Part shown: positions 19,022-37,196 of the stretch, in pieces
How positions within the stretch are numbered: the first letter of the stretch is position 1
Layout: the number at the start of each line of letters is the position of its first letter
Origin: an uncultured Gammaproteobacteria bacterium
GTDB taxonomy: Bacteria > Patescibacteriota > Microgenomatia > Levybacterales > UBA12049
Reading direction: 5' to 3'
Assembly: GCA_964562445.1 (NCBI GenBank)
Contig: CAZLSZ010000001.1
Span: 10,755-74,754, forward strand
Length of the DNA stretch: 64,000 nt
Made by a program: the position numbers and the translations under genes
The notes under the pieces: generated by a model
What the model was told of the DNA's origin: nothing
The model's database searches: none
What the model saw: the letters and a program-made list of their open reading frames with translations, nothing else

Positions 19022-19037
19022 AACATCTCTTTGTCAT

Positions 19038-19062: not shown

Positions 19063-19099
19063 ATATCCCACGAATGTGGGGAATAATTACTCTCACATT

Positions 19100-19372: not shown

Positions 19373-19430
19373 TATATTATCATAATATATTTTATGTAAT
19401 GTATGCTACCTCGCATACGCGAGATATTAT

Positions 19431-19460
19431 TCGCCAGCTGAGCTTGCTCAGAATGACATT
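19431..19460. repeat. palindromic repeat-family member (cgccagctgagcttgctcagaatgaca)
   Basis: ctgagc-tt-gctcag stem followed by aatgaca. Related to cgccagctggcgg...aatgaca at 35533-35556. Confidence 0.4.
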
Positions 19461-19462
19461 TA

Positions 19463-20428
19463 CTATTTGAGGTCGATGATGGTGATTTCTTGTCTTTCAA
19501 TTTCTTTACTTTTTGCAAACCCTTCTTTTATGGCATCGCGAAATGCCTCCATGCTTTGATATCTTTCTTCAGGTTTGAATGCCAGAGCAGTATGGACAAC
19601 TTCTTCAATCGGCTCCAGATTTTTTGCCATATTGTCTTTTAATGAATCCTCAAATAACGGTGGTTTAGCCGTTAGATGCGCCATAGCGCTTGCAGCGCGT
19701 GTTATTCTGTTATAAGGATTTCTTCCCGTAAAAAGTTCATACCCTACTACTCCCAGCGAATAAATATCTCCTTCAGGCACGCTTATTATTTCTTCTTCGC
19801 TTCCCACTCGTTCATGAGGGACATATGCAGGCGTACCGTACGGGTCGTATTCATAATATGTTTTTTCACCTTTTTTTAGCTTTACGGCCATTCCCCAGTC
19901 GATAACTTTTATATTGGGTACTCCATTTTCTTCATGAAACAAAATATTATCGGGTTTGATATCCCGATGCAGAACGCCTTGCTGATGAGCGTATTCTATA
20001 CCTGCGGCAGTTTGCGCGAGAATGTGTACTCCGCAGTGAATACTTGCGCGTCCTTCGCGTTTTAATCTTTCTTTTACAGATTTTCCGTCAGCAAACCGCA
20101 TGGCGATATACGGATATTCTGCTTCACGATCATATTCAAATAAGTGAATAATGTGGCTATGGATAAGTTTTTGATGTATGAGGGCTTCATTATCAGCCTC
20201 CTGTAGAGGGTATTCGTTTTTAAATACTTTGAGCGCGACAGTATTTCCCGTGGTGGTATCAGTTCCTTTATAGACTTCGGCTGTCCCGCCTCTGCCGATC
20301 TTTTTCCCCAGGATAAATTTTTCATTGAATGTCCTGCCCGGAATTAATTCTTTCTTTTGCATAAAAAAGGGATTATAGTAGAGATTACCCCATTTTGCAA
20401 GGGATTGAGGGGTAAATATGATTGTCAT
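19463..20428 (-). CDS. Hanks-type serine/threonine protein kinase (soluble, kinase domain only)
   Basis: GRGGTAEVYKG...ALKVF (G-loop and VAIK-like), HRDIKPDNIL (catalytic loop), DWGMA (DFG variant), GTPAYVPHE. Confidence 0.9.
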   Translation of the reverse strand: MTIIFTPQSLAKWGNLYYNPFFMQKKELIPGRTFNEKFILGKKIGRGGTAEVYKGTDTTTGNTVALKVFKNEYPLQEADNEALIHQKLIHSHIIHLFEYDREAEYPYIAMRFADGKSVKERLKREGRASIHCGVHILAQTAAGIEYAHQQGVLHRDIKPDNILFHEENGVPNIKVIDWGMAVKLKKGEKTYYEYDPYGTPAYVPHERVGSEEEIISVPEGDIYSLGVVGYELFTGRNPYNRITRAASAMAHLTAKPPLFEDSLKDNMAKNLEPIEEVVHTALAFKPEERYQSMEAFRDAIKEGFAKSKEIERQEITIIDLK

Positions 20429-20492
20429 GCTGAACTTGTTTCGTCACCCTCGCGCCTGCCTGCTTGCAGGCAGGTTCGGAATGACAGGGAAT
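20424..20492. repeat. nested palindromic intergenic repeat (gtcatgctgaacttgtttcg ... cctgcctgcttgcaggcagg ... ttcggaatgacag)
   Basis: 9-bp GC-rich inverted repeat at 20455-20474. Flanking motifs are shared with copies at 32218-32332, 35254-35346 and 37077-37196. Confidence 0.55.
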
Positions 20493-20502
20493 GTGGGGGG
20501 CT

Positions 20503-21717
20503 TTAGCGGGAGGAGTGTTTGAGTGATTCGGCGGCGATACTCACGGATATTCCCAGTGCCATACCCAGAAGGATACCGATCAGCCCTGCGGAGAATTTTC
20601 CTCCTTCTTTTAATGTCGCCAGTATTTTTTCCCGTCGCTCTTTTCCTTCAGGAGTAGAGGCATCAAATTCGGGAAGCATATCCAGGAGGGAATTAAAGTC
20701 TCCTTTGGCGACCCCTTCTATTACGTCACGCGCTTTGCCGCTATCCAAATCCCCCTCCTGCGCTCTTTTGAAGTATTCATCCATCGGATCTTCTCCTTTT
20801 TCTCGTGCTTCTTCCATCATTTTGTCCATTTGATTTACCATGCCGAGTTCTTTTTCTGCCTGTTCCAGCCGGCGTTTTGCGATCTCGTCATCGGGGAATT
20901 TGGTAAGTATATCTTTTTGTTGGGTTATTTCAGCTCTGAGTGATGCCGCTTGTTTTTCAATTCCTGCCGGACCTACTCCCAGCACATCCATCATCGCGTG
21001 AAAGTCATCTTTGTCCAGAATCGTCTTGCCGTCAATCGCCTGCAATGCTTTGTCAGCATCTTCCCGATCAGGGTGCCCTTCCGGAACGGTTTTATCGATA
21101 ATAGCTCGCATATCTCCTGCGGTGAGCATACCTTTCTCGCGTGCAATCTTTTCTATCTGCGTACTCATCTCATCGGTCATCTCCGGTGTTTCCATACTGG
21201 GATCAATCGTATCCAGATATGTCTTTACAAATTCCCGCTCCTCTCCGGTAAATCCTGCTTCTATGGCTTGTCTTTCCGACACAAGATTCATTCCCATAAG
21301 TTCACTTGGTGGGATAGTCATATCATATCTTGCAGCATCATCGCGGCCTCCTTCTCCTTGTTTGATTACTTTGCATGTGTAATTCCCTTTATCATCGATC
21401 CCTGTTATCTGGTCGACGTAAACATCATACGTCTCTCCTGTGGTACTGTCTTCATAGGTTGTTGCCAGCGGATTACCTTTGTCAGTGCCTTCTGTCGTAG
21501 GGAATGCAAGGGGGCCATTGGCAAAGTATTCTTGTTTGGGTTCATAAAGCTGTTTTGAACCTCGTATCTTGGTTCCTGATTCGTCATTCTCTTGAGATTT
21601 TTTGTTAAAGACACTACTTGCTACCAGTCCTATTTCTTTTGATCGGCGAGCTTGCTGCTCGGGAGATACTTCGCTTTCTGTTCGGGGTGGTGCTGTCTGC
21701 TCTGCTGCTTCTGTCAT
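20503..21717 (-). CDS. hypothetical acidic protein with C-terminal transmembrane anchor (tail-anchored), co-directional upstream of the STK
   Basis: 404 aa, D/E-rich, with coiled-coil-like middle. C-terminus GGKFSAGLIGILLGMALGISVSIAAESL is hydrophobic. No recognisable catalytic motif. Confidence 0.6.
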   Translation of the reverse strand: MTEAAEQTAPPRTESEVSPEQQARRSKEIGLVASSVFNKKSQENDESGTKIRGSKQLYEPKQEYFANGPLAFPTTEGTDKGNPLATTYEDSTTGETYDVYVDQITGIDDKGNYTCKVIKQGEGGRDDAARYDMTIPPSELMGMNLVSERQAIEAGFTGEEREFVKTYLDTIDPSMETPEMTDEMSTQIEKIAREKGMLTAGDMRAIIDKTVPEGHPDREDADKALQAIDGKTILDKDDFHAMMDVLGVGPAGIEKQAASLRAEITQQKDILTKFPDDEIAKRRLEQAEKELGMVNQMDKMMEEAREKGEDPMDEYFKRAQEGDLDSGKARDVIEGVAKGDFNSLLDMLPEFDASTPEGKERREKILATLKEGGKFSAGLIGILLGMALGISVSIAAESLKHSSR

Positions 21718-21761
21718 ATTCTTAATATAGTTGAATAATCCCTATAAATCAACTAACATGA

Positions 21762-24356
21762 ATGTATATGGCTAATATAGAGCAGATTTTGCCTGTAGTA
21801 AAAGAAAAGGCGAAAGATACAGGAAAACAAGGCGCGGCTAAAGTAAAACACTTTTTCGGTCGGGGAAATAATGTGTCTCCTCAAGAACAACCTCAAAAGC
21901 CGGCATATGCCACTCCGGAATTTAAGAAAAATTTTTTTGTAGATAGGGGCGTGACAACGGAAGCTGCGGTAAAAGGCAGAAGGAGAGAAACCAACGAACG
22001 ATCAGAATGGGTACAATTTTCTGAAAAGACGAGAGAAGGGTTTACGACGTTTTTGGATAATTATGCCACAAATCTCCATGATATCATGCAGCAGCCTGGT
22101 GGCGCGGATATTCTCAAGTCACAAGAGCATAGTAAACATATCTATAAGCTTCTTTCAGAAGGAGTGTCATTTGATGGGACCAAGCAGGATGATACCAAAC
22201 TCAAGGAGAATATCAAAAAAATGCTTGATAAACCATCCGGCTGGGTGCTTACCAAAGAACTTATGGAACAAGAAACAGCCCTCGGTCTTATGGCTTTGGG
22301 GTTGGTAACAAGCGAGGATATGGGGAAAAGTGGTAAGTTGAGAGCAGTAGGAGAATATCTCGGGCTTGTTGATAAAAAAACTGATTTTAATAATGACCCT
22401 GGCTCAGTTATGCATCGTAATATAGGCAAAGGTACCGGAGGGAGTATAGGTGCAGTAGTCGGTGGTGGTGTTGGAAATATATTATCACGTGGGAATGCTG
22501 ATTTCTGGTTCAATATTGGGGATACTATGGCAAATATCCCTCATGGAAGTGTTGCGATGTCAACATATATTGGTGCAGGGGTTGGGGCGGTCTTAGGAAG
22601 TAGTTTGGCAGAGGGACGGAGGAATAAGCAAGATGCAGGGATGAGAGGGGAGTTTGCTTCTCATGAAAGTGCTGTTCTTCCCGGCGAATTGAAAGATTAT
22701 CTGAAAAAAGTTTGGAAAGTAGATGTTGATGGTTTGAAGAGTAGCGAGGCTGATGTGCGGGATGTTATGGGGACGTTGGCAAAGAATCTTAAAACGCGGG
22801 AATCGTATTTTGATGATCTTGGAATACCCAAAGATGTGCGGGATATGTCTCCGGAGAGTAAATTAATTGGAGGACGTTCTGTTGCACGGAGTGGGGAGAA
22901 GATTACACAAAAAATAATGGCAGTTTATAAAGAGAAAGGTGGAAGCACTCCGGAACAATATATGGAGGCGAGAAAGGCAGTGCTAGGAAAAATAACACAG
23001 GAGATGATTGAAGGAATAGAAAGTAAACCAAAGGAACGCCCGCTAGCAACTATTGATCAGAAAATAAAAGACAGACAGGAAGGCGGAAAATTATATGAGT
23101 TAAAGAAAAATAGTGCTGCAACAATAGAATCTATTTCAGAAGCGGGTAAGAATATATCCTCTGTAACAGAGGAAATGGCAACTTTTCAAAATGTTAAAGA
23201 TCTAACTGCTCAAAAAAAACAACTCGAAGACGATTTAAATAATTTATATACTCATATAACACCTCAAGATAGGAAAGATGAAATACAAAAAGAGCTATTT
23301 GGTACAGGAGGACTTCAGGAGAAAAAGCGTGATACTGCCGATAAAAGAGCCGAAGCAATTGATGCAATTCGTAATAGACATCCTATAAAAGATGGGGAAA
23401 CGGCTGCTGATTATTGGAAAAAAGTTGGTCCTTCAATTGACGCGACTGAGGAAATTTATAATGAACAAATTAAGGAAGTGGAAGAAAAAATAAATAAGTT
23501 ACTTCAAGAGAAAGCACAAATTAATGAGTTTGAAGAACGAATAAAGGATATCGGAGATCAGCTCAAAGGATATTCTAATCTTATAGCAAGTTATCAGAGT
23601 GATCTTACGTCAATACAGCCGCTTTTTAGTCCTGGTGTGTTAGAAGATAGGACAATAGATCCAGCTACGCATTTGAAAACGATTAATAGTAAAGCTTCCA
23701 CGGGCGGATGGACAAAAGATGAAAATGACGAAAATAGATTGAGGCTTTTGAAAGCAATTGCAGTAGCAAGAGCAAGTTCGTCAGGAACTATTGACAATAA
23801 TTTGCTCGAAATAGAAATGAGTACACTATTATCGCAAGAAAAGAAGAAGAAAGCTGGTTTAGAACAGAGGTTAGGAACAGTAAATTATGAAAAGGAGATT
23901 AATGATCTTACCATAACAAAAACACTTATTTCTCCAGAAACACAAGCAAAGGTATTTGGGAAGGCAGGAGAAATTTCAAAACAAATAGATAAATATGTTG
24001 ATAAAGATATTGTAGACCCGAAAGATACTATATCAAAAACAGAAAAAGCCCTAAAGGGAGAGAAAGGATATTATGAAATATTAGATTTACTTTTTGAATA
24101 TAGAAAACGACCGGATAGAGAAGAATATTTTTCTCAAATAAGCAAAGTGGTTACTCAAGATGAGGTACTTAAAGCACTGCAAGAGCTAGCTGAACTAGCA
24201 GATATAGATTTAAGTACATTATCTAACCCTAATAAGTTGGCAGATGTTATGGACCAGATAAAAGCAAATAAAGGAAAAGTTACAAGTAAACATATTAGAG
24301 GTATGTTTATTCGCTTAATGGATAATAGTCAAAATCGAGCCTTGGCGATGAGCTAA
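21762..24356 (+). CDS. large hypothetical protein (864 aa): glycine-zipper segment plus long coiled-coil region
   Basis: GKGTGGSIGAVVGGGVGNILSRG...YIGAGVGAVLGSSLAEG (GxxxG-rich). The remainder is K/E-rich heptad-like sequence. Start could be ATG 21768. Confidence 0.6.
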   Translation: MYMANIEQILPVVKEKAKDTGKQGAAKVKHFFGRGNNVSPQEQPQKPAYATPEFKKNFFVDRGVTTEAAVKGRRRETNERSEWVQFSEKTREGFTTFLDNYATNLHDIMQQPGGADILKSQEHSKHIYKLLSEGVSFDGTKQDDTKLKENIKKMLDKPSGWVLTKELMEQETALGLMALGLVTSEDMGKSGKLRAVGEYLGLVDKKTDFNNDPGSVMHRNIGKGTGGSIGAVVGGGVGNILSRGNADFWFNIGDTMANIPHGSVAMSTYIGAGVGAVLGSSLAEGRRNKQDAGMRGEFASHESAVLPGELKDYLKKVWKVDVDGLKSSEADVRDVMGTLAKNLKTRESYFDDLGIPKDVRDMSPESKLIGGRSVARSGEKITQKIMAVYKEKGGSTPEQYMEARKAVLGKITQEMIEGIESKPKERPLATIDQKIKDRQEGGKLYELKKNSAATIESISEAGKNISSVTEEMATFQNVKDLTAQKKQLEDDLNNLYTHITPQDRKDEIQKELFGTGGLQEKKRDTADKRAEAIDAIRNRHPIKDGETAADYWKKVGPSIDATEEIYNEQIKEVEEKINKLLQEKAQINEFEERIKDIGDQLKGYSNLIASYQSDLTSIQPLFSPGVLEDRTIDPATHLKTINSKASTGGWTKDENDENRLRLLKAIAVARASSSGTIDNNLLEIEMSTLLSQEKKKKAGLEQRLGTVNYEKEINDLTITKTLISPETQAKVFGKAGEISKQIDKYVDKDIVDPKDTISKTEKALKGEKGYYEILDLLFEYRKRPDREEYFSQISKVVTQDEVLKALQELAELADIDLSTLSNPNKLADVMDQIKANKGKVTSKHIRGMFIRLMDNSQNRALAMS

Positions 24357-24377
24357 GATTATCGCTACAATAAAAGT

Positions 24378-24722
24378 ATGAATACAGCAAAGGATGTAAT
24401 CAAATTATTACCGTTTAGCGAAACGTTCAAGAACGAACTGCTCGCTAAGTACGACCTGATGGATGAGGATCAGCAGGTGGCTGTACTGCGGGCGGTGTGG
24501 GATCTGTATGATGCCCTTTATGAAGTCACGCTTGATGAAAATCTCAAAGCGGCTGAACAGCGTGCGCTCAAGGACGAAGAAAAACTCGACGAAGACTTCT
24601 ATATGCGGGTACGCAAACAAACTGATCAGGACTTCCAAAAGTTTGTCAGTGAGTCCTCAGCAAACAGTGATCTTTCCACAGCACGGGAAGAATTACAGAA
24701 GATTCTTACACAATCCTCATAA
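24378..24722 (+). CDS. hypothetical small acidic protein (114 aa)
   Basis: ORF with strong coding character. No known motif. Confidence 0.5.
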   Translation: MNTAKDVIKLLPFSETFKNELLAKYDLMDEDQQVAVLRAVWDLYDALYEVTLDENLKAAEQRALKDEEKLDEDFYMRVRKQTDQDFQKFVSESSANSDLSTAREELQKILTQSS

Positions 24723-24733
24723 ACCCCATAGTA

Positions 24734-24762
24734 TTGACTTTTTGCCTTCTTTTTACTATACT
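24734..24762 (+). promoter_or_regulatory. sigma70-like promoter TTGACT-17-TATACT, 13 nt upstream of the LysM-protein ATG
   Basis: -35 at 24734-39, -10 at 24757-62, ATG at 24776. No SD. Confidence 0.45.
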
Positions 24763-24775
24763 CTGAATCGTTTTT

Positions 24776-26947
24776 ATGGTAGAGAAAATATCATTATCAG
24801 AAATAGCTCGCAAGAAAATACGCCGTAGTGCAGCCACAGTTGGCGCGGCAGGTGTTGTCGCGATTCCGATGGCTGCAGTTCCTTCTGCAGCTCATGCCGA
24901 ATCCCCTGCAAATGGTTCCCCTGCGCATGTTCAGGTCGTCAAGGATGTCCGGACCGGAGGAGTAGATTTCGATGCCAAGAGAATACACCTTACCGGTGTT
25001 AAGCCTTCATATTGTGTCATCCCGGAGCCTCGGCAGGAGCCTGAAAAGCCTGAGAAAATAGATGAAAAATTATTTGATGTATATACCGTAAAAAAAGGTG
25101 ATACCCTTTCTGAAATTGCAGCGGACTCTCTCAAACAAAAAGAAGGACAGCAATTTGACTGGAAAAAAACACAAGAGGATTTTATGCTTACCGCCGCAGC
25201 ATCCGGTATCGCAAATCCGGATCTTATTTATCCCGGACAAAAGATACACATCCCGGGTAAAGAACTCCGACAGACAGTGCGTGATGCTCAGCAAGGGAAT
25301 GGGAAGAAAGAAGTAGTGGATACTGTAAAGGCGCTTACACAGGAGATCACGCATCGTGGATACCACAAGGCGGACAATGAAGCTCTGAATGTGCTTACCG
25401 CAGTTTCGGAAATCCAACAGCAAAATCCCCCGAAAGAGCCCACAGGATTAGCTGCCGATAAGAGTTTATTGGAAATAGCGACTGAATTAAATATTGCTCC
25501 CATTAATATTTCTACTCCTTTTCGATCGGATGTTGTTGAATCTCAAACGAAAATCGCTCTTGCCAATCAATGTATCGTAGGGACAGAAGCAAAATCACAA
25601 ACCACTATACGTGAACAATTGACAAGAAAAGGTGACACCAAATCAGATACTTATCTACGCGCGCGCATGGCAGAGGCAGCAACTAGCTATGATATCTCTA
25701 AGTATAATCATAACTCTAGGGATATACAGATGCAAAAAGGGGAGAAGTTCAATAAACTGTCCGGCGGTGTAGAATCAGTGTTGCAAGGAATTTCCTCCAT
25801 GAGTTTGCGGGATATGATGGATCTGAAATCATTGCGGGATCAGAAAAAGTTTCCAGATGATGTGTATACAGAGGTGGCTACATTATGGGCAGTAGCCGCG
25901 AGTAAAGATATTGGAATGATACTTAGTGAGAATGATCATCATACATTACGTAATGCAGCATATGGGCATCTCGTCGAAGCCTTGAGTCGTAATGATCGCC
26001 GTCAAGAACCTGATGATACCAAGAAACTCATTACTCTGCTCAATAAGGCAAAAACCCCCGAAGAGCGCGCTCAATTGATGCTTGATCATCCGAATGCGCT
26101 CAAACACTTCTTCCGTGATGATGCGCAAGGAGCAGTTCCACCTCTCAATCCTCCTGCGGTTGATATCTCACCGAAAGATCCCCCTAAAGATGAAGGGAAT
26201 GCCTTATTAGCTTATGGGAAAGAGCATGCTGGGTGGATTGCAGGAGCATTGGGGCTCCTTGCGCTAGGAGCGGTAGGTGTTAAAAAGAGAAAGGAAATAA
26301 AAGAAAAATTAATGCATAAAAAATATAAAGATGAGAAAGTGCAAGAAAGCTTAGCTTTGCGTAAAGCTGAGAAAAAGCACCTTACGGATGATGAAATTAG
26401 GGAGCAAATAAGATTAATTTATCCAAAAACAATGACGTGGAAGCAAGAAAGTAAACTAAGATTAAATACTAATAAAGGAAGACTGGATGTCCTTCCGAAT
26501 GAAACAAGTGTGGGGATGGATGAAGCTTCATTTAGAAAGTTTTTGGAATTTGTAAAGGAAAATCCTGATTCGGTTTATTGTAAAGCAGCACTCGACGAAT
26601 ATGAATCGCATAAAAAGGCTGGTACTGAAGATAAATATGCGTTTGTTGCAAGCGCGAGAACACGTCTTGCTACGAATCTGGAAGATGTGAAGTTAAGCAT
26701 AGAGGATAGAGATGTAACCAAGAGACCTCTTGGATATGTAAGCTTTGAGTGGAGACTTGTCGAAGTTATTGATCCAGCATCATTACCACCTCAACCACCT
26801 GCTCCTAAACGAAAGCCACGCAGAACACCTACTAGTCCGGAACCACAAGGTGGTACAACTCCGCCCGTTACTCCTGAACCGCAGGGTGGAGCTACACCAC
26901 CTGCACAGCCTGAGCCCAAGGGGGGGACGAAACCTCCTGAAAAGTAA
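24776..26947 (+). CDS. LysM domain-containing membrane/secreted protein (723 aa) with Pro-rich C-terminal tail
   Basis: N-terminal signal-like RRSAATVGAAGVVAIPMAAVPSAAHA. LysM: YTVKKGDTLSEIAADSL...IYPGQKIHIP. TM helix GWIAGALGLLALGAVGV then KKRKE. Tail PEPQGGTTPPVTPEPQGGATPPAQPEPKGG. Confidence 0.7.
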   Translation: MVEKISLSEIARKKIRRSAATVGAAGVVAIPMAAVPSAAHAESPANGSPAHVQVVKDVRTGGVDFDAKRIHLTGVKPSYCVIPEPRQEPEKPEKIDEKLFDVYTVKKGDTLSEIAADSLKQKEGQQFDWKKTQEDFMLTAAASGIANPDLIYPGQKIHIPGKELRQTVRDAQQGNGKKEVVDTVKALTQEITHRGYHKADNEALNVLTAVSEIQQQNPPKEPTGLAADKSLLEIATELNIAPINISTPFRSDVVESQTKIALANQCIVGTEAKSQTTIREQLTRKGDTKSDTYLRARMAEAATSYDISKYNHNSRDIQMQKGEKFNKLSGGVESVLQGISSMSLRDMMDLKSLRDQKKFPDDVYTEVATLWAVAASKDIGMILSENDHHTLRNAAYGHLVEALSRNDRRQEPDDTKKLITLLNKAKTPEERAQLMLDHPNALKHFFRDDAQGAVPPLNPPAVDISPKDPPKDEGNALLAYGKEHAGWIAGALGLLALGAVGVKKRKEIKEKLMHKKYKDEKVQESLALRKAEKKHLTDDEIREQIRLIYPKTMTWKQESKLRLNTNKGRLDVLPNETSVGMDEASFRKFLEFVKENPDSVYCKAALDEYESHKKAGTEDKYAFVASARTRLATNLEDVKLSIEDRDVTKRPLGYVSFEWRLVEVIDPASLPPQPPAPKRKPRRTPTSPEPQGGTTPPVTPEPQGGATPPAQPEPKGGTKPPEK

Positions 26948-27159
26948 AAACAGATCCTACAGATCCTGCCTCTATCCCATCAGTAGGAGGTGGACAGGAA
27001 GATGGAAATAATCGAACGCTAATAATATCGCAGAATGTTAATTTTATCAACATTCCTTTCGGTACATATCCTTCTTTACCCTATCCCCAACAAAAGGAAG
27101 ATAGTAAGGGAGGAGAAAAAGTTCCTCATCAGGTTTCCGGAGTTGCAGTATCCGTCGAT

Positions 27160-29562: not shown

Positions 29563-29618
29563 TTTTATATAATTCTCCATAAATATATTATAATGAATGT
29601 GTATTTGGCTCATAGTAT

Positions 29619-29647
29619 TTGATTTCTCCTGTGAACGGGTGTATAAT
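29619..29647 (+). promoter_or_regulatory. sigma70-like promoter TTGATT-17-(TG)TATAAT, 8 nt upstream of the ATG (leaderless)
   Basis: -35 at 29619-24, -10 at 29642-47 preceded by TG, ATG at 29656. Confidence 0.5.
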
Positions 29648-29655
29648 GCTCTCTT

Positions 29656-30171: not shown

Positions 30172-30365
30172 AACAAGTGCTGTATGAGTTGGGAGAGGAA
30201 CGACCATTTGGATCAGAGCTACTGCGGCAGAATCGACGACTGGATACAATACCTACAAAAGTACAACCTGATGTCTGTCGGCAAAAAGCGTATGTAATCA
30301 ACCATAGAAAAGGTGGTCACGAAGAATATACCGTATCTCTCGAAGAACGCGTAGTGATGTTGTAG
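30168..30365 (+). CDS. hypothetical small protein (65 aa), ATGA-coupled to upstream gene
   Basis: The start overlaps the previous stop (ATGA). No motif. Confidence 0.35.
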   Translation: MKQVLYELGEERPFGSELLRQNRRLDTIPTKVQPDVCRQKAYVINHRKGGHEEYTVSLEERVVML

Positions 30366-30369
30366 TTAT

Positions 30370-31017
30370 ATGAAAGAACGAAAAATAGTACAGAGTGCTC
30401 TTGCAGTAGGGCTTACATTGGGAGGTCCGACATTACCGGGGCTGTCTCTAGAGGCAGATCCTCCTACTCCTCATGTCATGCAAAGTACGGACAAAAAATA
30501 TCCTACAAAAGAAGAGGTAGAAGCCCAAATCGCCGAGAGAAATAAGAATGAATTATCGGGACTAGGAGTTGTAAGTTTGCTGAGTGCATGCGTAGTCGGT
30601 TCAGTAATCTACGCCAGACGAAAGTATAATAGATATGAAAGAGAAAAATCATTGTATCTTACCACAGCAGAACCTGTCTATGAGAAAGATGCTGCAATTT
30701 TTTCGCAAAGTCTCTATCGAAATGCCATTCCCAAGAAAGATGTAAAAAGATATGGGAAAGATCTTATGGAACGAGGTGGCAATCCCAAACATGAATTTTC
30801 AACAACCAATAAAGAAGGATTTATCAACGTCGCCAAGTCTGCGGGCATTCCGAATCGAAAAATATATGCAACTGTGTTGAATTATGATACGCTTTTGGAA
30901 GAGAAACCCAATCCCGAATCCGGTACAGTGAAAGCGCTTATTATCCAAGCATTCAATAAAAAAGATCAGACACGCTACGAAACCAAAATAGGGAAGAGAT
31001 TTTATAGAGGAAATTAA
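30370..31017 (+). CDS. hypothetical exported/membrane protein (215 aa; signal peptide plus one TM)
   Basis: ALAVGLTLGGPTLPGLSLEA signal-like. TM VVSLLSACVVGSVIYA then RRKYNRY. Same architecture as the 29656 gene. Confidence 0.55.
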   Translation: MKERKIVQSALAVGLTLGGPTLPGLSLEADPPTPHVMQSTDKKYPTKEEVEAQIAERNKNELSGLGVVSLLSACVVGSVIYARRKYNRYEREKSLYLTTAEPVYEKDAAIFSQSLYRNAIPKKDVKRYGKDLMERGGNPKHEFSTTNKEGFINVAKSAGIPNRKIYATVLNYDTLLEEKPNPESGTVKALIIQAFNKKDQTRYETKIGKRFYRGN

Positions 31018-32171
31018 TTTTTCTTGTTTTGCGCGATAGTAACAGCTTGCATTACCACAGTTCCAAGCGCGATAAGGAAGATAATGCCTGAAATAAGCCA
31101 GCCGAATACAGGAATGAGCGAGATGAGATAGATAACAACCGGTCCGATTATCACTGCTTTCCAATCAAATGTATATTGCTTTTTCTTATCATTCCGTTTG
31201 GTATACCATTCCATTATCCACCATCCGACAAATAGTTTGGCCAATATCCCCGCCAAAATAAGCACCAATCCGTAGAAGAGGAATGCTGCGATACCCAGCA
31301 TAAGAAGTATCAGCATGAGTATTGCTGCGATAGGAAAGAGGATGAGGAATGCAAACCCGATAACGCCATTTTTTACCGGATGCTCTTTCATCTGTCTGAA
31401 TATATCTACCGCGAATCGTCTGAAGAAATACAGGACGAGTAACCCGAGCAGAATATCAACTATGAGCATGTAGAGAGCACCAGATGTAAGAAAACCAGCC
31501 GCAGTTTTATTGTCATCCCCGTCTTCTTTTTGCGGTGTATAAATTGTTTGACCGTTTACTTTGGCGCTGGGGTCAAGTGATGCTTTATTGTCAGAGGTAT
31601 ATTTCAAATCGCCATTAATGACGGCGCGTGAGCCCAATGAGAGTTGTCCTACATATCCTTCTACTCCTTTACCGACAGTATTATTAACAGTTACTTGCCC
31701 TCCTGAGATAAGTACTTTGCCACCGACAGGCGCGTCAAGTTTGAGGGTCCCGCCTGCGAAAAGTACATCTCCGCCTATCTTTGCGTTTGGTGTCACGACG
31801 ACAGTTCCGCCGGTAACGACCAGATCATTTACGATATCACTATCTACGGTGATGTTTCCCCCTGCTACTCTGAGTGAGTTGCCAATTTTGTTTTTGATAG
31901 TGACATTGCCGCCTCCTACCATGACGCTCTGTCCCACAGGACTGTCGATATCGACTTGTCCCGCACCGACGATAGCATCGCTTTGAACGGGAGCGCTGAG
32001 TGATACGGTATCACCGAAAAGATAGATGTTTTTTATGTCAGCAGCATCAGAACTGACGACAATTTGTTCACCGGTGCGTATGTCTGCGGCGGAGGCGTGG
32101 GGAACAGAGACAATAAAAGGAAGGAGAAGGAGGGAAAATCCGAATATGATTCGTTGAATCAGCTTCATATG
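31014..32171 (-). CDS. beta-helical repeat (DUF4097/bactofilin-like) domain protein with signal peptide and C-terminal multi-TM domain
   Basis: Start chosen at ATG 32171 (MKLIQRIIFGFSLLLLPFIVSVPHASA signal peptide). Repeats GGNVTIKNKIGNSLRVAGGNITVDSDIV...GGTVVV...GGTLKL...GGKVLISGGQVTV. Five C-terminal TM helices. Confidence 0.6.
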   Translation of the reverse strand, partial: HMKLIQRIIFGFSLLLLPFIVSVPHASAADIRTGEQIVVSSDAADIKNIYLFGDTVSLSAPVQSDAIVGAGQVDIDSPVGQSVMVGGGNVTIKNKIGNSLRVAGGNITVDSDIVNDLVVTGGTVVVTPNAKIGGDVLFAGGTLKLDAPVGGKVLISGGQVTVNNTVGKGVEGYVGQLSLGSRAVINGDLKYTSDNKASLDPSAKVNGQTIYTPQKEDGDDNKTAAGFLTSGALYMLIVDILLGLLVLYFFRRFAVDIFRQMKEHPVKNGVIGFAFLILFPIAAILMLILLMLGIAAFLFYGLVLILAGILAKLFVGWWIMEWYTKRNDKKKQYTFDWKAVIIGPVVIYLISLIPVFGWLISGIIFLIALGTVVMQAVTIAQNKKN

Positions 32172-32217
32172 CGCAGTGTAGCATAAAATAGAGCAAGTTT
32201 CTAGAGGGTATTGTCTC

Positions 32218-32332
32218 GTCATTCTGGCTCTGTCCAGAATCGATTCTGGAGCCTGCCTGCCGGCAGGCAGGTTCTCACTTCGTTCGTCCCCAGAATGACA
32301 AGAGAGAGATGCTTAAACGAGTTCAGCATGAC
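32218..32332. repeat. nested palindromic intergenic repeat (gtcattctgg..ccagaatgaca inverted repeat enclosing cctgcctgccggcaggcagg; plus gtcatgctgaactcgt in reverse)
   Basis: Outer inverted repeat 32218-27 / 32290-32300, inner 10-bp palindrome at 32252-71, third motif at 32321-32. Near-identical outer element at 37134-37196. Confidence 0.6.
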
Positions 32333-32354
32333 TGCCTTAGTGTCATGATAGTTG

Positions 32355-32831
32355 TTATTCTGCCACGGGGCTGAAAATGAGAGGAACACTTACCTTATCC
32401 GTGTCGCGGCCATCTTTGGGTGAAGCTTGGAAAACTTCAAGAATAAGCTCTGTACCCGGTTTGAGATCATCATTGTCCAGAAGCACACCCGCACGGAAAT
32501 CTCCGAACTCTCCGGCTTCTTGGGCATTGGTCTGGGTATATGTTTGTCCGTATACTTTGCCTGTCAGTTTATTTTTCAACCGGAGAGAAACCATATTCTC
32601 AAAGACCCGTGCTTTTCCTTCTATGATAAGTTTTTGGGTAATGTGCTCATTCATTTTGGGAGATACTACGATAATATTTTGGGATGCGGCGGGAGCTATT
32701 GTCGGCGTAGGACGATAGAAGGGGGTATTTTTGACAATGTCAGGCTGCTGTATCGAGAGTGCCGCCAACAGCAAAACGATTGTCGCGACAGCTGCAATAA
32801 CGAGCCAAACTATCGTTGTTTTATGATTCAT
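32355..32831 (-). CDS. hypothetical membrane-anchored protein with Ig-like (Gmad2/GerMN-like) ectodomain
   Basis: N-terminal TM TIVWLVIAAVATIVLLLAAL. The beta-rich remainder (...KARVFENMVSLRL...GEFGDFRAGVLLD...) resembles GerMN/Gmad2 domains. Confidence 0.5.
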   Translation of the reverse strand: MNHKTTIVWLVIAAVATIVLLLAALSIQQPDIVKNTPFYRPTPTIAPAASQNIIVVSPKMNEHITQKLIIEGKARVFENMVSLRLKNKLTGKVYGQTYTQTNAQEAGEFGDFRAGVLLDNDDLKPGTELILEVFQASPKDGRDTDKVSVPLIFSPVAE

Positions 32832-32905
32832 ATCCTAAAATTACTGTAGCACAAATGTTCCGGTAGTGAAATGGTATAATCATCATACTGCTCAACAATA
32901 CTCGT

Positions 32906-33931
32906 ATGTGGAAAAAAAGTTTATTTATCAGAAATATACAATCGGATAGTTATCTGGAGAATTTTCTTATTTCAGCTGTTGTCAGCGTATTTTTAATCCG
33001 TATCTTCCTAGCAATTACGGACTATCCTATTTTGGGGGCAGGTAATTTGCATATCGCGCATATGTTGTGGGGGGGATTTTTTATGATGGCTGCACTTATC
33101 ACGCTTTTCTCGTTTCTCAGTCAGCGCGCTGCTGCCGTAGCATCTGTGCTGGGTGGGATCGGGTTCGGGGCATTTATTGATGAATTAGGTAAATTCATTA
33201 CGGCAGATAATAATTATTTTTTCCAACCCACTATAGCGCTGATATATATCATATTTGTTTTTATTTTTCTTATTACACGGTTTATTCCACGGTATCATGA
33301 ATTCTCGCAGCGGGAATATCTGGTCAATGCGATTGAAATGATCAAAGAATCTGCGATTGATGACTTTGATGCTGATGAGCGCCGCCGCGCTGAAGAGTAT
33401 TTACGTCAGTGCGATCAGCGTAATGAGATGGTAAAGGCTCTTCAGAAAATGCTGAAAAATAGCGCTATTGCGCCGAGTACTCGCCCCGGGCATTTTACGC
33501 GTCTGCGGCGTAAGCTACGGAGATTATATTATCGTGTCGCGGAATCAGATAGAATCCTTACGGCAATTACCGCCTATCTTGCCGCGTCAACCGCGTGGAC
33601 TTTTTTTAATTCCGTTTTATATTTCTCTCAGCGCGCGTACATGCATTATAGCGATATCGGACAATTATATTCCTCCATGCTGGCAGGATCATTTGTCGTA
33701 ATCGGTCTTTTTGCTCTTAAATTTTCGAGATTTGAAGCGTATCGATATTTCCGCTTCGCGATGCTCACAACTATTCTACTGACAGAATTTTTTTCTCTCA
33801 TGAATCCGGTATGGTATGAAATTTTTACTTTGGGAGCAAATGTTTTTGTTCTTTTGGTTATTAACTACGCGATGATACGAGAACAAAAGAAAGTAAAAAA
33901 CACCAGAGAAGGAGTTGTTGCAAAAAAATAG
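32906..33931 (+). CDS. hypothetical polytopic membrane protein (341 aa)
   Basis: At least six hydrophobic helices. No catalytic motif recognised. Confidence 0.55.
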   Translation: MWKKSLFIRNIQSDSYLENFLISAVVSVFLIRIFLAITDYPILGAGNLHIAHMLWGGFFMMAALITLFSFLSQRAAAVASVLGGIGFGAFIDELGKFITADNNYFFQPTIALIYIIFVFIFLITRFIPRYHEFSQREYLVNAIEMIKESAIDDFDADERRRAEEYLRQCDQRNEMVKALQKMLKNSAIAPSTRPGHFTRLRRKLRRLYYRVAESDRILTAITAYLAASTAWTFFNSVLYFSQRAYMHYSDIGQLYSSMLAGSFVVIGLFALKFSRFEAYRYFRFAMLTTILLTEFFSLMNPVWYEIFTLGANVFVLLVINYAMIREQKKVKNTREGVVAKK

Positions 33932-33954
33932 TAATTATGTTTAAATAATGCTGT

Positions 33955-34132
33955 ATTACGAGTGTCCCGCTTTGCGGGACCGGCAACCCTTCGGCAAGCT
34001 CAGGGTAGACCATTCAATATATTCAAGGTTAATCCTTAAGGACTTCTGCCGTGTCGGGTGCCTCTCTCCGGAAAAATGGAGAAATACGGCCATCGGGCAA
34101 ACAGCATAATCCCTTTGGTAAGGGATTTTTTT
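33955..34132 (+). promoter_or_regulatory. structured 5' leader of metK with intrinsic terminator sequestering the SD (riboswitch candidate, possibly SAM-responsive)
   Basis: GC-rich hairpin gtcccgc-ttt-gcgggac (33964-80). ggcaacc and ggtgcc motifs reminiscent of S-box elements. Terminator aatccctt-tggt-aagggatt plus T6 (34109-34132) ends 1 nt before the ATG and contains the only SD-like AAGGGA. Confidence 0.5.
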
Positions 34133-35245
34133 ATGATAAAAAAATTATTTACATCAGAATCAGTCTGCGCTGGGCATCCCGACAAAATTTGTGATCAAAT
34201 CAGTGATGCGTTGGTGGATGCAGTAATCGCACAGGATCCGCATGCACATACAGGTATTGAAACAGTGGCAGGTGCAAACCAAGTAAGTCTTTTCGGGGAA
34301 ATAAAGTCGAGCGCGTCAGTAGACTACGAAGCAATTGTGCGCAGTACTATTACCAAACTCGGCTACACGGTTGACGCGTGGGGTTTCAGTGATAAGTCTT
34401 CTTTTACCAATTTCATTCATCAGCAGTCTCCTGAAATCGCAATGGGTGTAGATCAGGATGGTGCTGGGGATCAGGGGATGATGTTCGGGTATGCCTGTGA
34501 TGAGTCACCTGAATTAATGCCGATGCCGATTATGCTTGCCCACAGTTTGTCACGCGCTATTGATAATGCACGAGCCGCAAAGAAGCTTACGTGGCTGCGT
34601 CCTGACGGGAAAGCACAGGTCACTGTCCGGTATGATAAAGGAAAAGTGGTTGGGATAGAGAAGCTGGTTGCGGCAGTAGCGCATGATGAGAAAATATCTG
34701 CTGAGGAAGTCCGTGCGGAAGTAATTGCCAAAATATTTATTCCTGTTTTAACAAAGTATGGCATAGCGCTTCCTGCAGATAAAGATATTACGGTTAACGG
34801 TACAGGATTATGGCACATTCCGGGGCCACAGTCTGACGCAGGATTGACGGGGAGAAAAATTGTGGTGGATACCTATGGTGGCTATGCACGCGTGGGGGGT
34901 GGGTGTTTTAGCGGGAAGGATCCGAGTAAGGTTGATCGAAGCGGAGCGTATGCTGCGCGATATATTGCAAAAAATATTGTCGCGGCTGGCCTTGCTAAAC
35001 AGTGCGAAGTAGGTCTTGCATATGTAATCGGGCAGCCCAAGCCGCTGATGAAGACTATCGAGACATTCGGGACCGCTACTGTCAGTGAAAAAGCGCTTGA
35101 GGATTTTCAGGAAAAGCTTATTGATACGTCAGTGAAGGGGATTATTGAATCGCTTGATCTGCTTCGTCCGATATATCTTCAGACAGCCGCGTACGGTCAT
35201 TTCGGCAAAGAACAATTGCCGTGGGAAAAAATAGCCTCAGTATAA
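34133..35245 (+). CDS. metK: S-adenosylmethionine synthetase
   Basis: Start at ATG 34133 (MIKKLFTSESVCAGHPDKICDQISDA). GAGDQGMMFGYA, GGGCFSGKDPSKVDRSGAYAARY. The longer track ORF (34058) would include the terminator. Confidence 0.93.
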   Translation: MIKKLFTSESVCAGHPDKICDQISDALVDAVIAQDPHAHTGIETVAGANQVSLFGEIKSSASVDYEAIVRSTITKLGYTVDAWGFSDKSSFTNFIHQQSPEIAMGVDQDGAGDQGMMFGYACDESPELMPMPIMLAHSLSRAIDNARAAKKLTWLRPDGKAQVTVRYDKGKVVGIEKLVAAVAHDEKISAEEVRAEVIAKIFIPVLTKYGIALPADKDITVNGTGLWHIPGPQSDAGLTGRKIVVDTYGGYARVGGGCFSGKDPSKVDRSGAYAARYIAKNIVAAGLAKQCEVGLAYVIGQPKPLMKTIETFGTATVSEKALEDFQEKLIDTSVKGIIESLDLLRPIYLQTAAYGHFGKEQLPWEKIASV

Positions 35246-35253
35246 TTATGCAG

Positions 35254-35346
35254 TCATCCTGAACTTGTTTCAGGATCTCTTATTGAATTCTTGTACTTTG
35301 CATCGGCAAAGTACCAAAACCCTGCCTGCCGGCAGGCAGGTCTCGA
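35254..35346. repeat. palindromic repeat-family members in the 318-bp convergent spacer (gtcatcctgaacttgtttcaggat; gtactttg..caaagtac; cctgcctgccggcaggcagg)
   Basis: Perfect inverted repeats at 35254-77, 35293-35314 and 35321-40. Further GC-rich palindromes at 35385-35405 (cgggggaag..cttccccc), 35405-19 and 35533-46 (ccgccagctggcgg). Confidence 0.55.
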
Positions 35347-35563
35347 GCTAGTGAAGTCGCGCTAAAATTATTCCATTCGCTTGTCGGGGGAAGTCCTTCC
35401 CCCTGTCGCACAAGGCGACGAATCCCCTTGACGTCTCATTCCATAATTTCTTCACGCGCTTTGTTCACGCGCTCGATAATGGCATATTTTTTGTTTTTAA
35501 TTTTATGTTTTTAGTTATTTGAGATTGCCACTCCGCCAGCTGGCGGATCGCAATGACAGAAGT

Positions 35564-36169
35564 TTATTTCGTGGTTCTTTTACGTATGGGGTGTTCCAGC
35601 AGTTCTTTCCCGAAGTTGTATCCCCAATACATAGATAATTTTGTATAATCCCAGAACTTTTTTTTATTGATGCGATATTTTTTGATGTGGAAGTCCTTCA
35701 TATCCATCTGATGCTCGACATTCTCAGTAATAATCTGGATAATTTTATCCGCAAGAGGGGTGGATATGAGTTCTCCGTCTGTTGTCATTCTAAGTGTCGT
35801 ATTCTGTGCATGTACAATCCTCTTTTTTTCGGTGGGAAGGATATATGGTGCGGCATTGGTTTTGAGGGAGCGTTCTTTGAGATAGAGATTAAATCCGTAT
35901 GTTACGAGCGCATAATAAAATGATAGAAGGGCCGAATCTAGTGTCTTTTCGGGAGTAAGTGCTGGCGTATAGACGCATGCAGTAAAGCCTGCGGTTAGTC
36001 CATAGCAGGCAGTCGCGATCTCGTCAGGGAGGAAAAACTTTGCGACAGTACTATCATCAGTGTATTGATTGATAAGATTAAATATCTCACTCGCGATCAA
36101 AACAGCCTGATCTTCCAACTGCGGTGTGTTTTCTGTGAGTGTCATGGACATTGAGGTATTATAACCCAA
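35564..36169 (-). CDS. hypothetical protein (201 aa)
   Basis: Co-directional downstream of the Cas4-like nuclease. No motif recognised. Confidence 0.5.
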   Translation of the reverse strand: MGYNTSMSMTLTENTPQLEDQAVLIASEIFNLINQYTDDSTVAKFFLPDEIATACYGLTAGFTACVYTPALTPEKTLDSALLSFYYALVTYGFNLYLKERSLKTNAAPYILPTEKKRIVHAQNTTLRMTTDGELISTPLADKIIQIITENVEHQMDMKDFHIKKYRINKKKFWDYTKLSMYWGYNFGKELLEHPIRKRTTK

Positions 36170-36213
36170 AGGGAATGTTTTAGAAACCTATCGAAGTGGG
36201 TCAAAAGATATGT

Positions 36214-37041
36214 TTACGGCAAAATGTAGAGATCCTGATTGTATCCGCTCGTTCCGACATATTCGGCTTCTTTCCGGATAATTGCCTCAAAAGGTCTGCA
36301 GGAAAAACAACCATTTTTCGGACAGATGAAATCATTATTTTCTCTTGCTGTTTTTACTTTCTTAGCGGCATCAAAAATAAGCTCGTAGGACTTTTCAAGT
36401 GAAGGAAGTGTAATCTCAAATGGTTCATTATCCCGATCGAGATACCAATAACTTCCTTTGCTTGCTTTTTTAGATTGGCAGCGGTCAACAATAAGGGTAT
36501 ACGCGGGAAGCTGCAGGGACGTGATCGATTCATCATTTTTTCCTGTTTTAAAGTCGATGATATGGACGGTATCACTTTCAGGAAGATATTCGAGCCAGTC
36601 GATCTTGCCGCAAAGAATAATATTTTCCTCTTCTGACAGAAAAAAATATGGCAGCTCTTTTTTGATCTTTATTGCTTTATTGAGGAGCGGACCGGGGTGT
36701 TTCATGACGCGTTCCAACATTTTTCTTCCTCGCTCTTTGACGTGTTCTTCCTGTTCTTTATTTTGAAAACCTCCGAGTTTCCCAGTCACTTTTTGCCAGG
36801 CTTCTTCATACTGTCCGATGAGAGATTTTGTGAAGCGCTGGTCTGCCGGAACGACAGATAATGCTTCAAGCACCTCATGGACTGTCTGTCCCAATGCTAA
36901 AGCAGGCGAAACAATATTTACCTTATGTCGGGTAATGGGGTCTTTATACATATTCCTTAGAAAATAAAGGCGTGGACAGCTGAGGAAATCATTGATGGAT
37001 GAGTTGGATACCCAAACAGCTTTGTAAATGTCTTTGGTCAT
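36214..37041 (-). CDS. PD-(D/E)XK nuclease, Cas4/RecB-like with Fe-S Cys cluster (standalone; not CRISPR-associated here)
   Basis: N-terminal Cys (SCPRLYFL), IIDFKTGK (D..K motif), QLPAYTLIV (QxxxY), C-terminal CPKNGCFSCRPF. Confidence 0.7.
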   Translation of the reverse strand: MTKDIYKAVWVSNSSINDFLSCPRLYFLRNMYKDPITRHKVNIVSPALALGQTVHEVLEALSVVPADQRFTKSLIGQYEEAWQKVTGKLGGFQNKEQEEHVKERGRKMLERVMKHPGPLLNKAIKIKKELPYFFLSEEENIILCGKIDWLEYLPESDTVHIIDFKTGKNDESITSLQLPAYTLIVDRCQSKKASKGSYWYLDRDNEPFEITLPSLEKSYELIFDAAKKVKTARENNDFICPKNGCFSCRPFEAIIRKEAEYVGTSGYNQDLYILP

Positions 37042-37076
37042 ATGGTTTATTATATCTAATAATTATTACTTTTTTT

Positions 37077-37196
37077 GTCATGCTGAATTCATTTCAGCAT
37101 CTCTCCCAAAAAATGTAACACTAACATTAATCCGTCATTCTGGCTTGTCCAGAATCGATTCTGGAGTCCTCACGTCGTTCGTCTCCAGAATGACAT
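37077..37196. repeat. nested palindromic intergenic repeat (gtcatgctgaattcatttcagcat + gtcattctggcttgtccagaatcgattctggag..ccagaatgaca)
   Basis: Inverted repeats at 37077-37100 and 37134-43 / 37184-94. About 90% identical to the outer element at 32218-32300 but without the inner cctgcctgcc palindrome. Confidence 0.6.

Follow-up and report, generated by a model that had tools for sequence, protein, structure and literature searches.

A probable Ssn/SRM system with a variant class of hairpin repeats in a Patescibacteria-like genome

Examination of a 64,000-nucleotide stretch from an uncultured bacterium (assembly GCA_964562445.1, contig CAZLSZ010000001.1, positions 10,755 to 74,754; hereafter the window) reveals a family of short, tagged hairpin repeats lying between genes and, within the cluster that they form, a small gene for a 90-residue protein with a single GIY-YIG nuclease domain that is itself flanked by such repeats. 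We propose, with a probability of about 0.8, that the repeats and this gene together represent the Ssn/SRM system, which pairs an Ssn nuclease with Ssn-related motifs (SRM), and that they belong to the superfamily of CGTC/TGTC-tagged repetitive extragenic palindromic (REP) sequences. The window repeats share the tag, hairpin, tail, orientation and gene linkage of this system but are missed by the published SRM pattern, and thus constitute a distinct class (GTCATYCTGAGCGNAGCGAAGRATC, with AT-rich stems) within it. The system as such is already explained by its discovery in 2025; what is new here is a member whose repeat variant and host group fall outside the published pattern. An initial annotation of this stretch had recognized four repeat modules (i to iv), all of which we recovered where it had placed them; it had overlooked a further unit (19029-19070) and, with units on both sides, the GIY-YIG gene (19100-19372), and this gene is the key to the whole repeat feature.

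In Neisseria meningitidis, SsnA (NMV_0044) is a GIY-YIG protein of 94 residues that belongs to cd10448 (GIY-YIG_unchar_3), one of the conserved-domain (CDD) families (Chenal et al. 2025, Nat Commun 16:2388, PMC11893778). It binds the oriented repeat CGTCATTCCCGCGMAVGCGGGAATCYRG exclusively as single-stranded DNA (ssDNA), cuts a few nucleotides upstream of it, and is inactive on double-stranded DNA, on RNA and on the reverse strand; the mutations Y6A, Y17A and E64A each abolish cutting, and the enzyme reduces transformation by repeat-containing DNA (PMC11893778). Four SsnA homologs have been shown biochemically to cut only ssDNA, beside their own repeat, while across genomes 71% of the homologs have an SRM nearby, 42% are flanked on both sides, and SsnA is encoded in 81% of the genomes with more than 200 SRM (PMC11893778).

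The ssn homolog and the hairpin units of the window

The GIY-YIG domain (PF01541) spans residues 3-74 of the 90-residue window protein, which has no further DNA-binding domain, and its homologs are 90-100 residues long. Comparison with the N. gonorrhoeae SsnA homolog (94 residues, L082:1510-1791), used in place of the N. meningitidis sequence, gave 39% identity over 85 residues (pairwise E 4e-22) in an alignment covering about 90% of the protein, which places it within the published definition of an SsnA homolog (blastp E < 1e-10 and at least 75% coverage to Neisseria SsnA). Residues Y6, Y16 and E63 align with the SsnA residues Y6, Y17 and E64 and are invariant in 25 homologs. The nearest entries in the PDB are 1ZG2 (BH0048, E 5.7e-08) and 1YWL (EF2693, E 2.4e-06) of the UPF0213/COG2827 group, which are likewise single GIY-YIG domains and the nearest solved relatives by sequence, but are structural-genomics entries to which no function has been assigned. 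Relatives 50-73% identical to the window protein are found in more than 20 phylum-level lineages, many of them on contigs of about 1 kb, and a tblastn search of a phage collection returned no ssn homolog. Several database homologs (P0004, P0034, P0056, P0082, P0100 and P0102) have extended open reading frames (ORFs) that translate the flanking repeats, giving an N-terminal CHSERSEES or a C-terminal DSSLRSE or RFAQNDR. A second assembly of the same organism (L081; GCA_020049695.1, JAHZTP010151469.1, 2499 nt) ends about 130 nt past the stop codon of the neighbouring kinase gene, inside the ssn cassette; such a break fits repeat-induced interruption of assembly, and many ssn homologs are on short contigs.

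Modules i, ii and iv are all built from one oriented unit, which consists of an unpaired (C/T)GTC tag, a hairpin stem opening with AT and an ATC(TC) tail, and which is found singly or as dimers with the tags pointing outward. Its core motif GTCATNCTG occurs 13 times in the 64 kb, against 1.27 +/- 1.03 expected from dinucleotide shuffles; GAATGACA by itself is not significant (5 against 3.0 expected). Every unit in the window opens with (C/T/A)GTCAT. Module i comprises one unit, of 8 bp in the stem and 5 nt in the loop, present at 20424, 35253 and 37077 and inverted at 32304-32332; its complete copies show pairwise identities of 79-90%, and the stems at 35253 and 37077 differ by a compensatory change from C-G to G-C. 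Module ii is a tag-outward dimer of two units, unit A having a 7-bp stem and a loop of 5-6 nt, and its two copies (32218-32300 and 37134-37196) are 92% identical if the 20 nt of module iii in the first are disregarded. The nesting of module iii in module ii proposed initially thus stands as a precise 20-nt insertion at 32252 relative to the copy at 37134. The two copies of module iv, at 19431 and 35533, each correspond to the 3' part of a different unit, 19420-19461 and 35518-35561 respectively, both on the minus strand. The remaining units of the window have interrupted stems or loops of 14-19 nt; the tail of the window units is CTC or TCTC.

When folded as ssDNA, most units are clearly better than shuffled sequences (z -2.4 to -5.4), the weaker folds being those of the 19420-19461 region (z -2.0) and, as an exception, of the degenerate copy at 32303-32336 (z -0.7). 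The elements are spread over six spacers between 19 and 37.2 kb, of which two are convergent and one divergent, as the initial annotation had it for the set, but three are co-directional. Its description of the repeats as GC-rich islands likewise applies to a part of them, namely module iii (GC 0.80), and not to the units, whose GC of 0.41-0.57 compares with 0.40 for the window. Two ORFs, 19463-20428 and 31014-32222, are extended to starts at 20428 and 32222 that are probably spurious, because in both the ATG arises from the complement of the GTCAT tag (20426-20428 and 32220-32222).

An independent view of these elements comes from R1, a covariance model built solely from units that flank ssn homologs in other genomes: in an R1 scan the seven best matches were the window's own elements, with E from 0.0065 to 0.37. 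The features are as follows, with coordinates in the window, strand (a dot where none applies) and description.

19029..19070, +: putative SRM unit TTTGTCATCCTGAATCTGCTTTGCAGATGAAGGATATCC, 3' of ssn with its tag away from the gene; 5-bp clamp, tandem G.A, 6-bp inner stem and TTT loop; fold -7.6 kcal/mol, z -4.1; R1 20.8 bits, E 0.0086
19100..19372, -: ssn homolog, 90-residue single-domain GIY-YIG protein; Pfam PF01541, E 1.2e-14
19371..19400, -: putative promoter-like site (ATTACA-18-TATAAT), in the interval from the accessory hairpin to the start codon of ssn; 10/12 matches in a consensus scan
19410..19423,.: accessory hairpin CTCGCATACGCGAG, adjoining the upstream unit
19420..19461, -: putative degenerate SRM unit GTCATTCTGAGCAAGCTCAGCTGGCG, 5' of ssn with its tag away from the gene; holds module iv copy 1
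20424..20486,.: degenerate composite bounded by inverted GTCAT...ATGACA, containing a module i unit's 5' half, the fragment GTCACCCTCGCG, a module iii copy (20455-20474) and TTCGGAATGACA; fold -13.2 kcal/mol, z -2.4; not detected by R1
32214..32300,.: tag-outward dimer (module ii), forward unit GTCATTCTGGctctgtCCAGAATC, reverse unit ending CCAGAATGAC, with the module iii insert at 32252-32271; R1 15.8 bits for the forward unit; fold -21 kcal/mol, z -5.35
32303..32336, -: module i unit GTCATGCTGAACTCGTTTAAGCATCTCTC; R1 18.5 bits, E 0.031
35249..35282, +: module i unit GTCATCCTGAACTTGTTTCAGGATCTC, 8-bp stem and 5-nt loop, beginning 8 nt past the metK stop codon; fold -6.1 kcal/mol, z -4.0; R1 18.5 bits, E 0.03
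35321..35340,.: module iii CCTGCCTGCCGGCAGGCAGG, a perfect palindrome, not an SRM
35518..35561, -: putative SRM unit of the ATTGC class, GTCATTGCGATCCGCCAGCTGGCGGAGTGGCAATCTC, holding module iv copy 2; clamp shared with loci L028, L050, L051 and L057; fold -9.4 kcal/mol, z -2.7; R1 14.4 bits, E 0.29
37073..37106, +: module i unit GTCATGCTGAATTCATTTCAGCATCTCTC, the top R1 match in the window; 21.3 bits, E 0.0065
37130..37196,.: tag-outward dimer (module ii) without module iii; R1 14.0 bits; fold -14.4 kcal/mol, z -5.0

The layout of a unit adjoined by an accessory hairpin, as seen upstream of ssn, recurs in four other loci (L001, L003, L245 and L250), and a counterpart 80% identical to the dimer at 37130-37196 is found in a metagenome contig (L251, OBEQ011355677.1). 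In that contig the module ii-like dimer (1079-1140) sits at the junction of the overlapping same-strand ORFs 898-1128 and 1080-1391, and may be an insertion within a coding region of the kind described for Rickettsia palindromic elements. The family structure implied by the initial annotation is borne out more widely: module i is present in 114 IMG/VR stretches and module ii-like dimers occur elsewhere, so that the family extends far outside the window.

Association with the gene across lineages and turnover among relatives

The link between gene and repeat was assessed in 80 genome loci that encode relatives of the window protein (47-67% identity) and cover more than 20 phylum-level lineages, with association counted in 78 of them (76 for both-side and either-side counts). 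A GTCA[TC] counted as a unit if the next 5 nt, the clamp, recurred as their reverse complement within 5-40 nt; an earlier detector demanding a near-perfect stem was dropped as too strict, given that it scored 9 of the 78 loci and missed the class with tandem G.A. A forward unit ends within 150 nt upstream of the gene in 53 of the 78 loci (68%), against a background of 1.8% at random positions within the same loci, and a reverse unit starts within 150 nt downstream in 57 (73%, background 1.6%); both sides are occupied in 45/76 and either side in 62/76. These figures of 68-73% independently reproduce the published 71%. The units concentrate in the 300 nt to each side of the gene, and the window conforms to this layout, its gene lying between the units 19029-19070 and 19420-19461, both of them less than 500 bp away. 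The position of the latter unit agrees with that of the upstream unit in the 53 loci.

The modal flanking unit is YGTCATYCYGAGCGNAGCGAAGRATCYC, with a 5-bp clamp, tandem G.A and a GC-GNA-GC mini-hairpin. GTCA is shared by all of 68 flanking units, with T9 and the ATC tail conserved in at least 90%. The inner pair, which played no role in the selection of units, is paired in every case (GC in 47, AU in 16, CG in 5), and this covariation signal is lost when the partners are slid against each other.

Homologs in classical species were retrieved by tblastn of a plasmid collection, which includes several mislabelled chromosomes, and come from Azospirillum lipoferum, Sinorhizobium meliloti, N. gonorrhoeae, Rhizobium, Shinella, Aeromonas and others. 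In A. lipoferum 4B (L084/L085, NC_016623.1 255506-255799) ssn and its flanking CGTCATCCCCGCGAAGGCGGGGATCCAG dimers separate sufB from sufC in a suf operon that is intact in other respects, a clear sign of insertion into a conserved operon; the 40-kb neighbourhood contains no further unit. Of the ten units detected in 40 kb of S. meliloti, nine are no more than about 650 nt away from the gene; the N. gonorrhoeae gene is surrounded by dRS3-type repeats, and Rhizobium, Shinella and Aeromonas have a simple layout of forward unit, gene and reverse unit. The converse test is uninformative, since repeats are expected to far outnumber genes: an Ssn-like ORF was present in 1 of the 114 IMG/VR stretches with module i and in 1 of the 38 with module iii.

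Some of these loci have further features. On a Planktothrix agardhii plasmid (L088, NZ_LR882964.1) an ssn homolog and dense repeats lie between an MmeI-type restriction-modification gene and the DISARM helicase gene drmA, i.e. in a defence-island context. Head-to-tail tandem arrays of a dimer plus spacer, or of a whole cassette end, are seen in Flavivirga (L060, around 9900-10450) and Photobacterium (L093, 5449-7619), the latter comprising 14 units with a period of about 320-360 nt downstream of ssn.

The host of the window is probably a member of the Patescibacteria, as judged from its RecA, whose closest named matches are proteins of Candidatus Levyibacteriota and Patescibacteria. Syntenic relatives were retrieved via RecA, namely L245 (RecA 99% identical) and L247 (96%); the neighbouring kinase has no database relative below E 1e-40, so that a comparison with empty sites by way of this gene yielded none. 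Two orthologous spacers could be compared. The spacer between the PD-(D/E)XK and FKBP genes measures 246 nt in the window, with modules i and ii, and 78 nt in L245 and 147 nt in L247, neither of which has a unit, the unit at 37073-37106 and the dimer at 37130-37196 being absent from both. The spacer after metK measures 318 nt in the window, with modules i, iii and iv, 169 nt in L245 with a different set of units, and 195 nt in L247 with another unit. In L245 this spacer holds a gene-less dimer of 98 nt; its left half shares 67% identity with the sequence 5' of the window ssn, that is, with the unit 19420-19461. Because relatives with RecA identities of 96-99% differ in unit content at both spacers, the sequences indicate that the repeats turn over on a short evolutionary scale; the flanks of the L245 and L247 spacers are too diverged for junctions or target duplications to be mapped.

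Place among known systems and rival explanations

The likeness to Ssn/SRM extends over gene, locus and repeat: a single-domain GIY-YIG protein of about 90 residues with the same catalytic Tyr, Tyr and Glu, a repeat-gene-repeat arrangement with both tags outward amid clustered intergenic repeats, and units in which an unpaired (C/T)GTC precedes a stem that opens with AT and the tail is ATC. The window units also conform to the general description of SRM as oriented hairpin repeats of 20-50 nt with a 5' HGTCWY tag and a C directly after the palindrome. They differ in their stems and loops, which in the window are ATNCTGAA with a 5-nt loop, ATTCTGG, and the clade-typical ATYCT with tandem G.A and GC-GNA-GC, as against the published ATTCCCGCG (a canonical unit for comparison is GTCATTCTGAGCGAAGCGAAGAATC). 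Further differences are the accessory hairpin (TCTCGCG.ATGCGAGA) beside the window unit and a Patescibacteria-like host, a group absent from the main text of the Ssn paper.

Several observations weigh against placing the window in the Ssn/SRM system. The published pattern, HGTCWYN(0-2)YYVSBRHN(0-5)WNVSBRGN(0-2)RNCYNB, has no match in the window (0.11 expected) and misses all 113 of the units beside the 80 closest ssn homologs, although the same implementation does match the NTS, A. lipoferum and Rhizobium units; membership of the DNA element therefore rests on its shared architecture, the R1 model and the association with the gene. Individual R1 E-values are modest (0.0065 to 0.37), the unit 19420-19461 beside the gene is weak and degenerate (11.1 bits, E 1.8), and one ssn gene and about ten units are what is visible in 64 kb. 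NCBIfam gave no match for the 90-residue protein. Lastly, stems as AT-rich as ATGCTGAA lie outside the repeats assayed biochemically, and activity of this clade would follow by homology.

CGTC-tagged REPs were described as having a tag of CGTC, TGTC or CCTC, an 8-9 bp stem starting with AT, a loop of 4-5 nt, frequent dimers and the tail consensus CCA, and as including Neisseria dRS3 and Rickettsia RPE-4 and RPE-6 (Di Nocera et al. 2013, BMC Genomics 14:522, PMC3733652). The window repeats resemble them in the tag, in a stem that starts A-T then T-A, in their frequent dimers and in the lack of a link to a REP-associated tyrosine transposase (RAYT), and module i, with its 8-bp stem and 5-nt loop, does so in dimensions as well. 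They differ in their CTC or TCTC tail in place of CCA, and in that many have stems interrupted by tandem G.A or long loops. Homologs of the window gene are flanked by these very repeats in A. lipoferum, S. meliloti and Neisseria. Given that the ssn loci of these three carry CGTC-tagged REPs, we infer that SRM and CGTC-tagged REPs are probably equivalent repeat classes, a connection for which the Ssn paper does not cite the 2013 work. Di Nocera et al. had concluded that CGTC-tagged REPs are apparently without a dedicated transposase (PMC3733652); the link to SRM would answer the question of a dedicated enzyme that their paper left open.

By analogy with SsnA, DNA of the host that becomes single-stranded during replication, repair or uptake by transformation would allow the strand reading GTCAT to fold into a hairpin, which the Ssn homolog could bind, cutting this strand 5' of the tag, at a distance of a few nucleotides, and leaving duplex DNA, RNA and the complementary strand uncut. 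The outcome might be restriction or trimming of incoming ssDNA together with modulation of recombination, as in N. meningitidis, and/or the spread of the repeats themselves, as cassette and gene-less dimers. Both the cleavage and its biological outcome we infer only from the characterized homologs.

One alternative competes with a host function of this kind, and not with the Ssn/SRM identity. The unit-ssn-unit cassette could be a selfish element akin to an insertion sequence (IS), with gene-less dimers such as module ii and the 98-nt dimer of L245 as its non-autonomous derivatives and with Ssn supplying the end cleavage for single-strand excision and insertion, in analogy to RAYT with its REPIN (dimeric REP elements) and to IS200/IS605. 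Since both tags of the cassette point outward, the cuts predicted by homology would fall just beyond each end on opposite strands, a geometry that suits excision. The identity of the proteins (50-73%) over more than 20 phylum-level lineages, often on contigs of about 1 kb, the gene inserted in the A. lipoferum sufBCD operon, the accumulation of units within 300 nt on both sides of the gene, the different units of close relatives at two orthologous spacers and the resemblance of the L245 dimer to the sequence 5' of the window ssn are all consistent with such an element, and the Ssn authors themselves likened the repeat-gene-repeat layout to an IS and raised the hypothesis of domestication (PMC11893778). 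However, the chemistry of GIY-YIG enzymes is hydrolytic, and neither strand transfer nor religation of DNA is known from them, the diverged flanks of the polymorphic spacers leave target-site duplications and exact junctions unmappable, and no excision or insertion events were observed. Moreover, the inverted repeat reaches well past the tag in L063 and L023, the L084 gene is flanked by complete dimers instead of lying inside one, and the search of phage records found no homolog. On balance we regard an IS-like nature as possible but doubtful.

Three further explanations were weighed. Hairpins working mainly as RNA, in intrinsic termination, in mRNA stabilisation or as small RNAs, and resembling one another through functional convergence, would account for the several units just past stop codons (35253 after metK, 19029 after rpsI) and for the few that are flagged as weak terminator-like sites. 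Yet such sites are not enriched (20 against 14.5 +/- 3.4 expected) and most units have no T tract, so that the terminator role suggested in the initial annotation is not supported; it is further disfavoured by the cluster 37073-37196 between divergently transcribed genes, by dimers that put two units on opposite strands, and by an invariant unpaired GTC tag and ATC tail that termination would not need. Rfam at its gathering thresholds matched only a tRNA, relaxing E to as much as 5 over 18.9-37.4 kb brought no credible match, and SsnA does not bind the RNA form of its repeat (PMC11893778), all of which makes an RNA-level role quite improbable. Ordinary miniature inverted-repeat transposable elements with terminal inverted repeats, derived from a DDE-type IS and mobilised by it in trans, are suggested by the inverted TGTCAT...ATGACA that bounds module ii and the composite 20424-20486; their existence here is, we believe, very improbable, given the lack of a DDE transposase in the window and of direct duplications at the ends of 32218-32300, 37134-37196 and 20424-20486, termini that are complete hairpin units also occurring singly, and a GIY-YIG gene as the conserved neighbour across lineages. 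The mobile REP-like elements of the initial annotation were correct as to kind, in that the repeats fall in the CGTC/TGTC-tagged REP superfamily and vary in presence among close relatives, but not as to the RAYT partner. Classical REP/REPIN mobilised by a RAYT (a Y1 transposase of the HUH class) encoded elsewhere in the genome share the anatomy of short, tagged, intergenic hairpins and inverted dimers, and indeed RAYT and IS200/IS605 resemble the ssn cassette in having a small nuclease gene between inverted tagged hairpins that are also dispersed singly or as dimers, and in recognizing ssDNA hairpins and cutting beside a short conserved tag. The differences are as follows: hydrolysis by a GIY-YIG enzyme as opposed to transesterification by an HUH tyrosine, unrelated folds, a (C/T)GTC tag in place of GTAG, and mobility that in the case of Ssn/SRM is a hypothesis. 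Pfam searches of the 46 window ORFs found no RAYT (PF01797), DDE or other transposase, Di Nocera et al. found no RAYT flanked by CGTC repeats in any species (PMC3733652), and the gene inside the cluster, with which the repeats are strongly associated, is that of the GIY-YIG protein; a RAYT-driven origin is thus scarcely credible.

The main value of assigning the window to Ssn/SRM is correct annotation: repeats of this type should be recorded as Ssn-related motifs and the 90-residue ORF as ssn, and database proteins with CHSERSEES, RFAQNDR or DSSLRSE tails are read-through artefacts of the repeats. The published SRM pattern misses the repeats of this Ssn clade (Patescibacteria, Chloroflexota, Cyanobacteria, Acidobacteriota, Ignavibacteria and others), so published counts of repeat-enzyme association may be underestimates. 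The clade also supplies new, AT-richer recognition sequences for a family under development as ssDNA tools. The strain-level presence and absence of repeats and the ssn insertion in the suf operon offer concrete material for the question of mobility, which in the Ssn paper is solely a hypothesis.

Module iii and neighbouring features

The palindrome of module iii, CCTGCCTGCNNGCAGGCAGG, occurs three times in the window (20455-20474, 32252-32271 and 35321-35340) against 0.00 expected and has the form CCTGCCTGC-NN-GCAGGCAGG. It was considered as a member of the SRM family and rejected, being absent from the 80 ssn genome loci. Among IMG/VR sequences we found 45 sites in 38 stretches of widely differing composition, with GTCAT or ATGAC within 60 nt at only 7 of the 45. 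Where a comparison can be made, module iii appears as a precise 20-nt insertion in a hairpin loop with no target duplication. The sites concerned are the second hairpin of module ii (32252), the loop of the accessory hairpin TCTCGCG...AATGCGAGA beside an ssn gene from another metagenome (L250:1038-1058), and the variable loop of a tRNA-Met (L232:2284), where removal of the 20 nt restores a canonical tRNA of 72 nt; ARAGORN supported one of three suspected tRNA insertions. Literature searches for the sequence found no paper. Module iii is a separate element riding inside SRM structures, for which an artefact is possible.

These features could be joined in a picture of two mobile layers, which we consider unlikely. 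The first would be the unit-ssn-unit cassette with its dimers as an active class mobilised by the GIY-YIG enzyme, a hydrolytic, non-HUH counterpart of RAYT/REPIN, and the second would be module iii as a hyper-parasite of structured ssDNA that inserts precisely, and with no target duplication, into DNA hairpin loops. If true, an active cassette would explain both the near-identical cassettes in more than 20 phylum-level lineages and the turnover between strains with 96-99% relatedness.

The metK spacer holds two extra hairpins outside all modules, GTACTTTGCatcgGCAAAGTAC (about 35296-35317) and GGGGGAAGtcCTTCCCCC (35386-35403), in a stretch (35283-35517) that cannot be aligned with the orthologous spacers of L245 and L247. 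A long inverted repeat at 37309-37623 and 40869-41180 (243 nt at 71% complementarity and 55 nt more) corresponds to two paralogous FKBP-type isomerase genes in opposite orientation, 37288-37623 (+) and 40869-41336 (-). Recombination genes are found at 44154-54416 and 58456-59487, namely recA, recX, RNase Y, an AddA-like helicase-nuclease of the UvrD plus PD-(D/E)XK type, and rmuC; this cluster would be relevant if Ssn acts on recombination substrates. The region 54447-62150 may be what remains of a conjugative or DNA-uptake element: it encodes a coupling ATPase of the VirD4/TraG-like kind (54447-56408, with an apparent interruption at 56408/56454), followed by a zinc-ribbon protein (57705-58016) and, at 61413-62150, a TraX-like protein.

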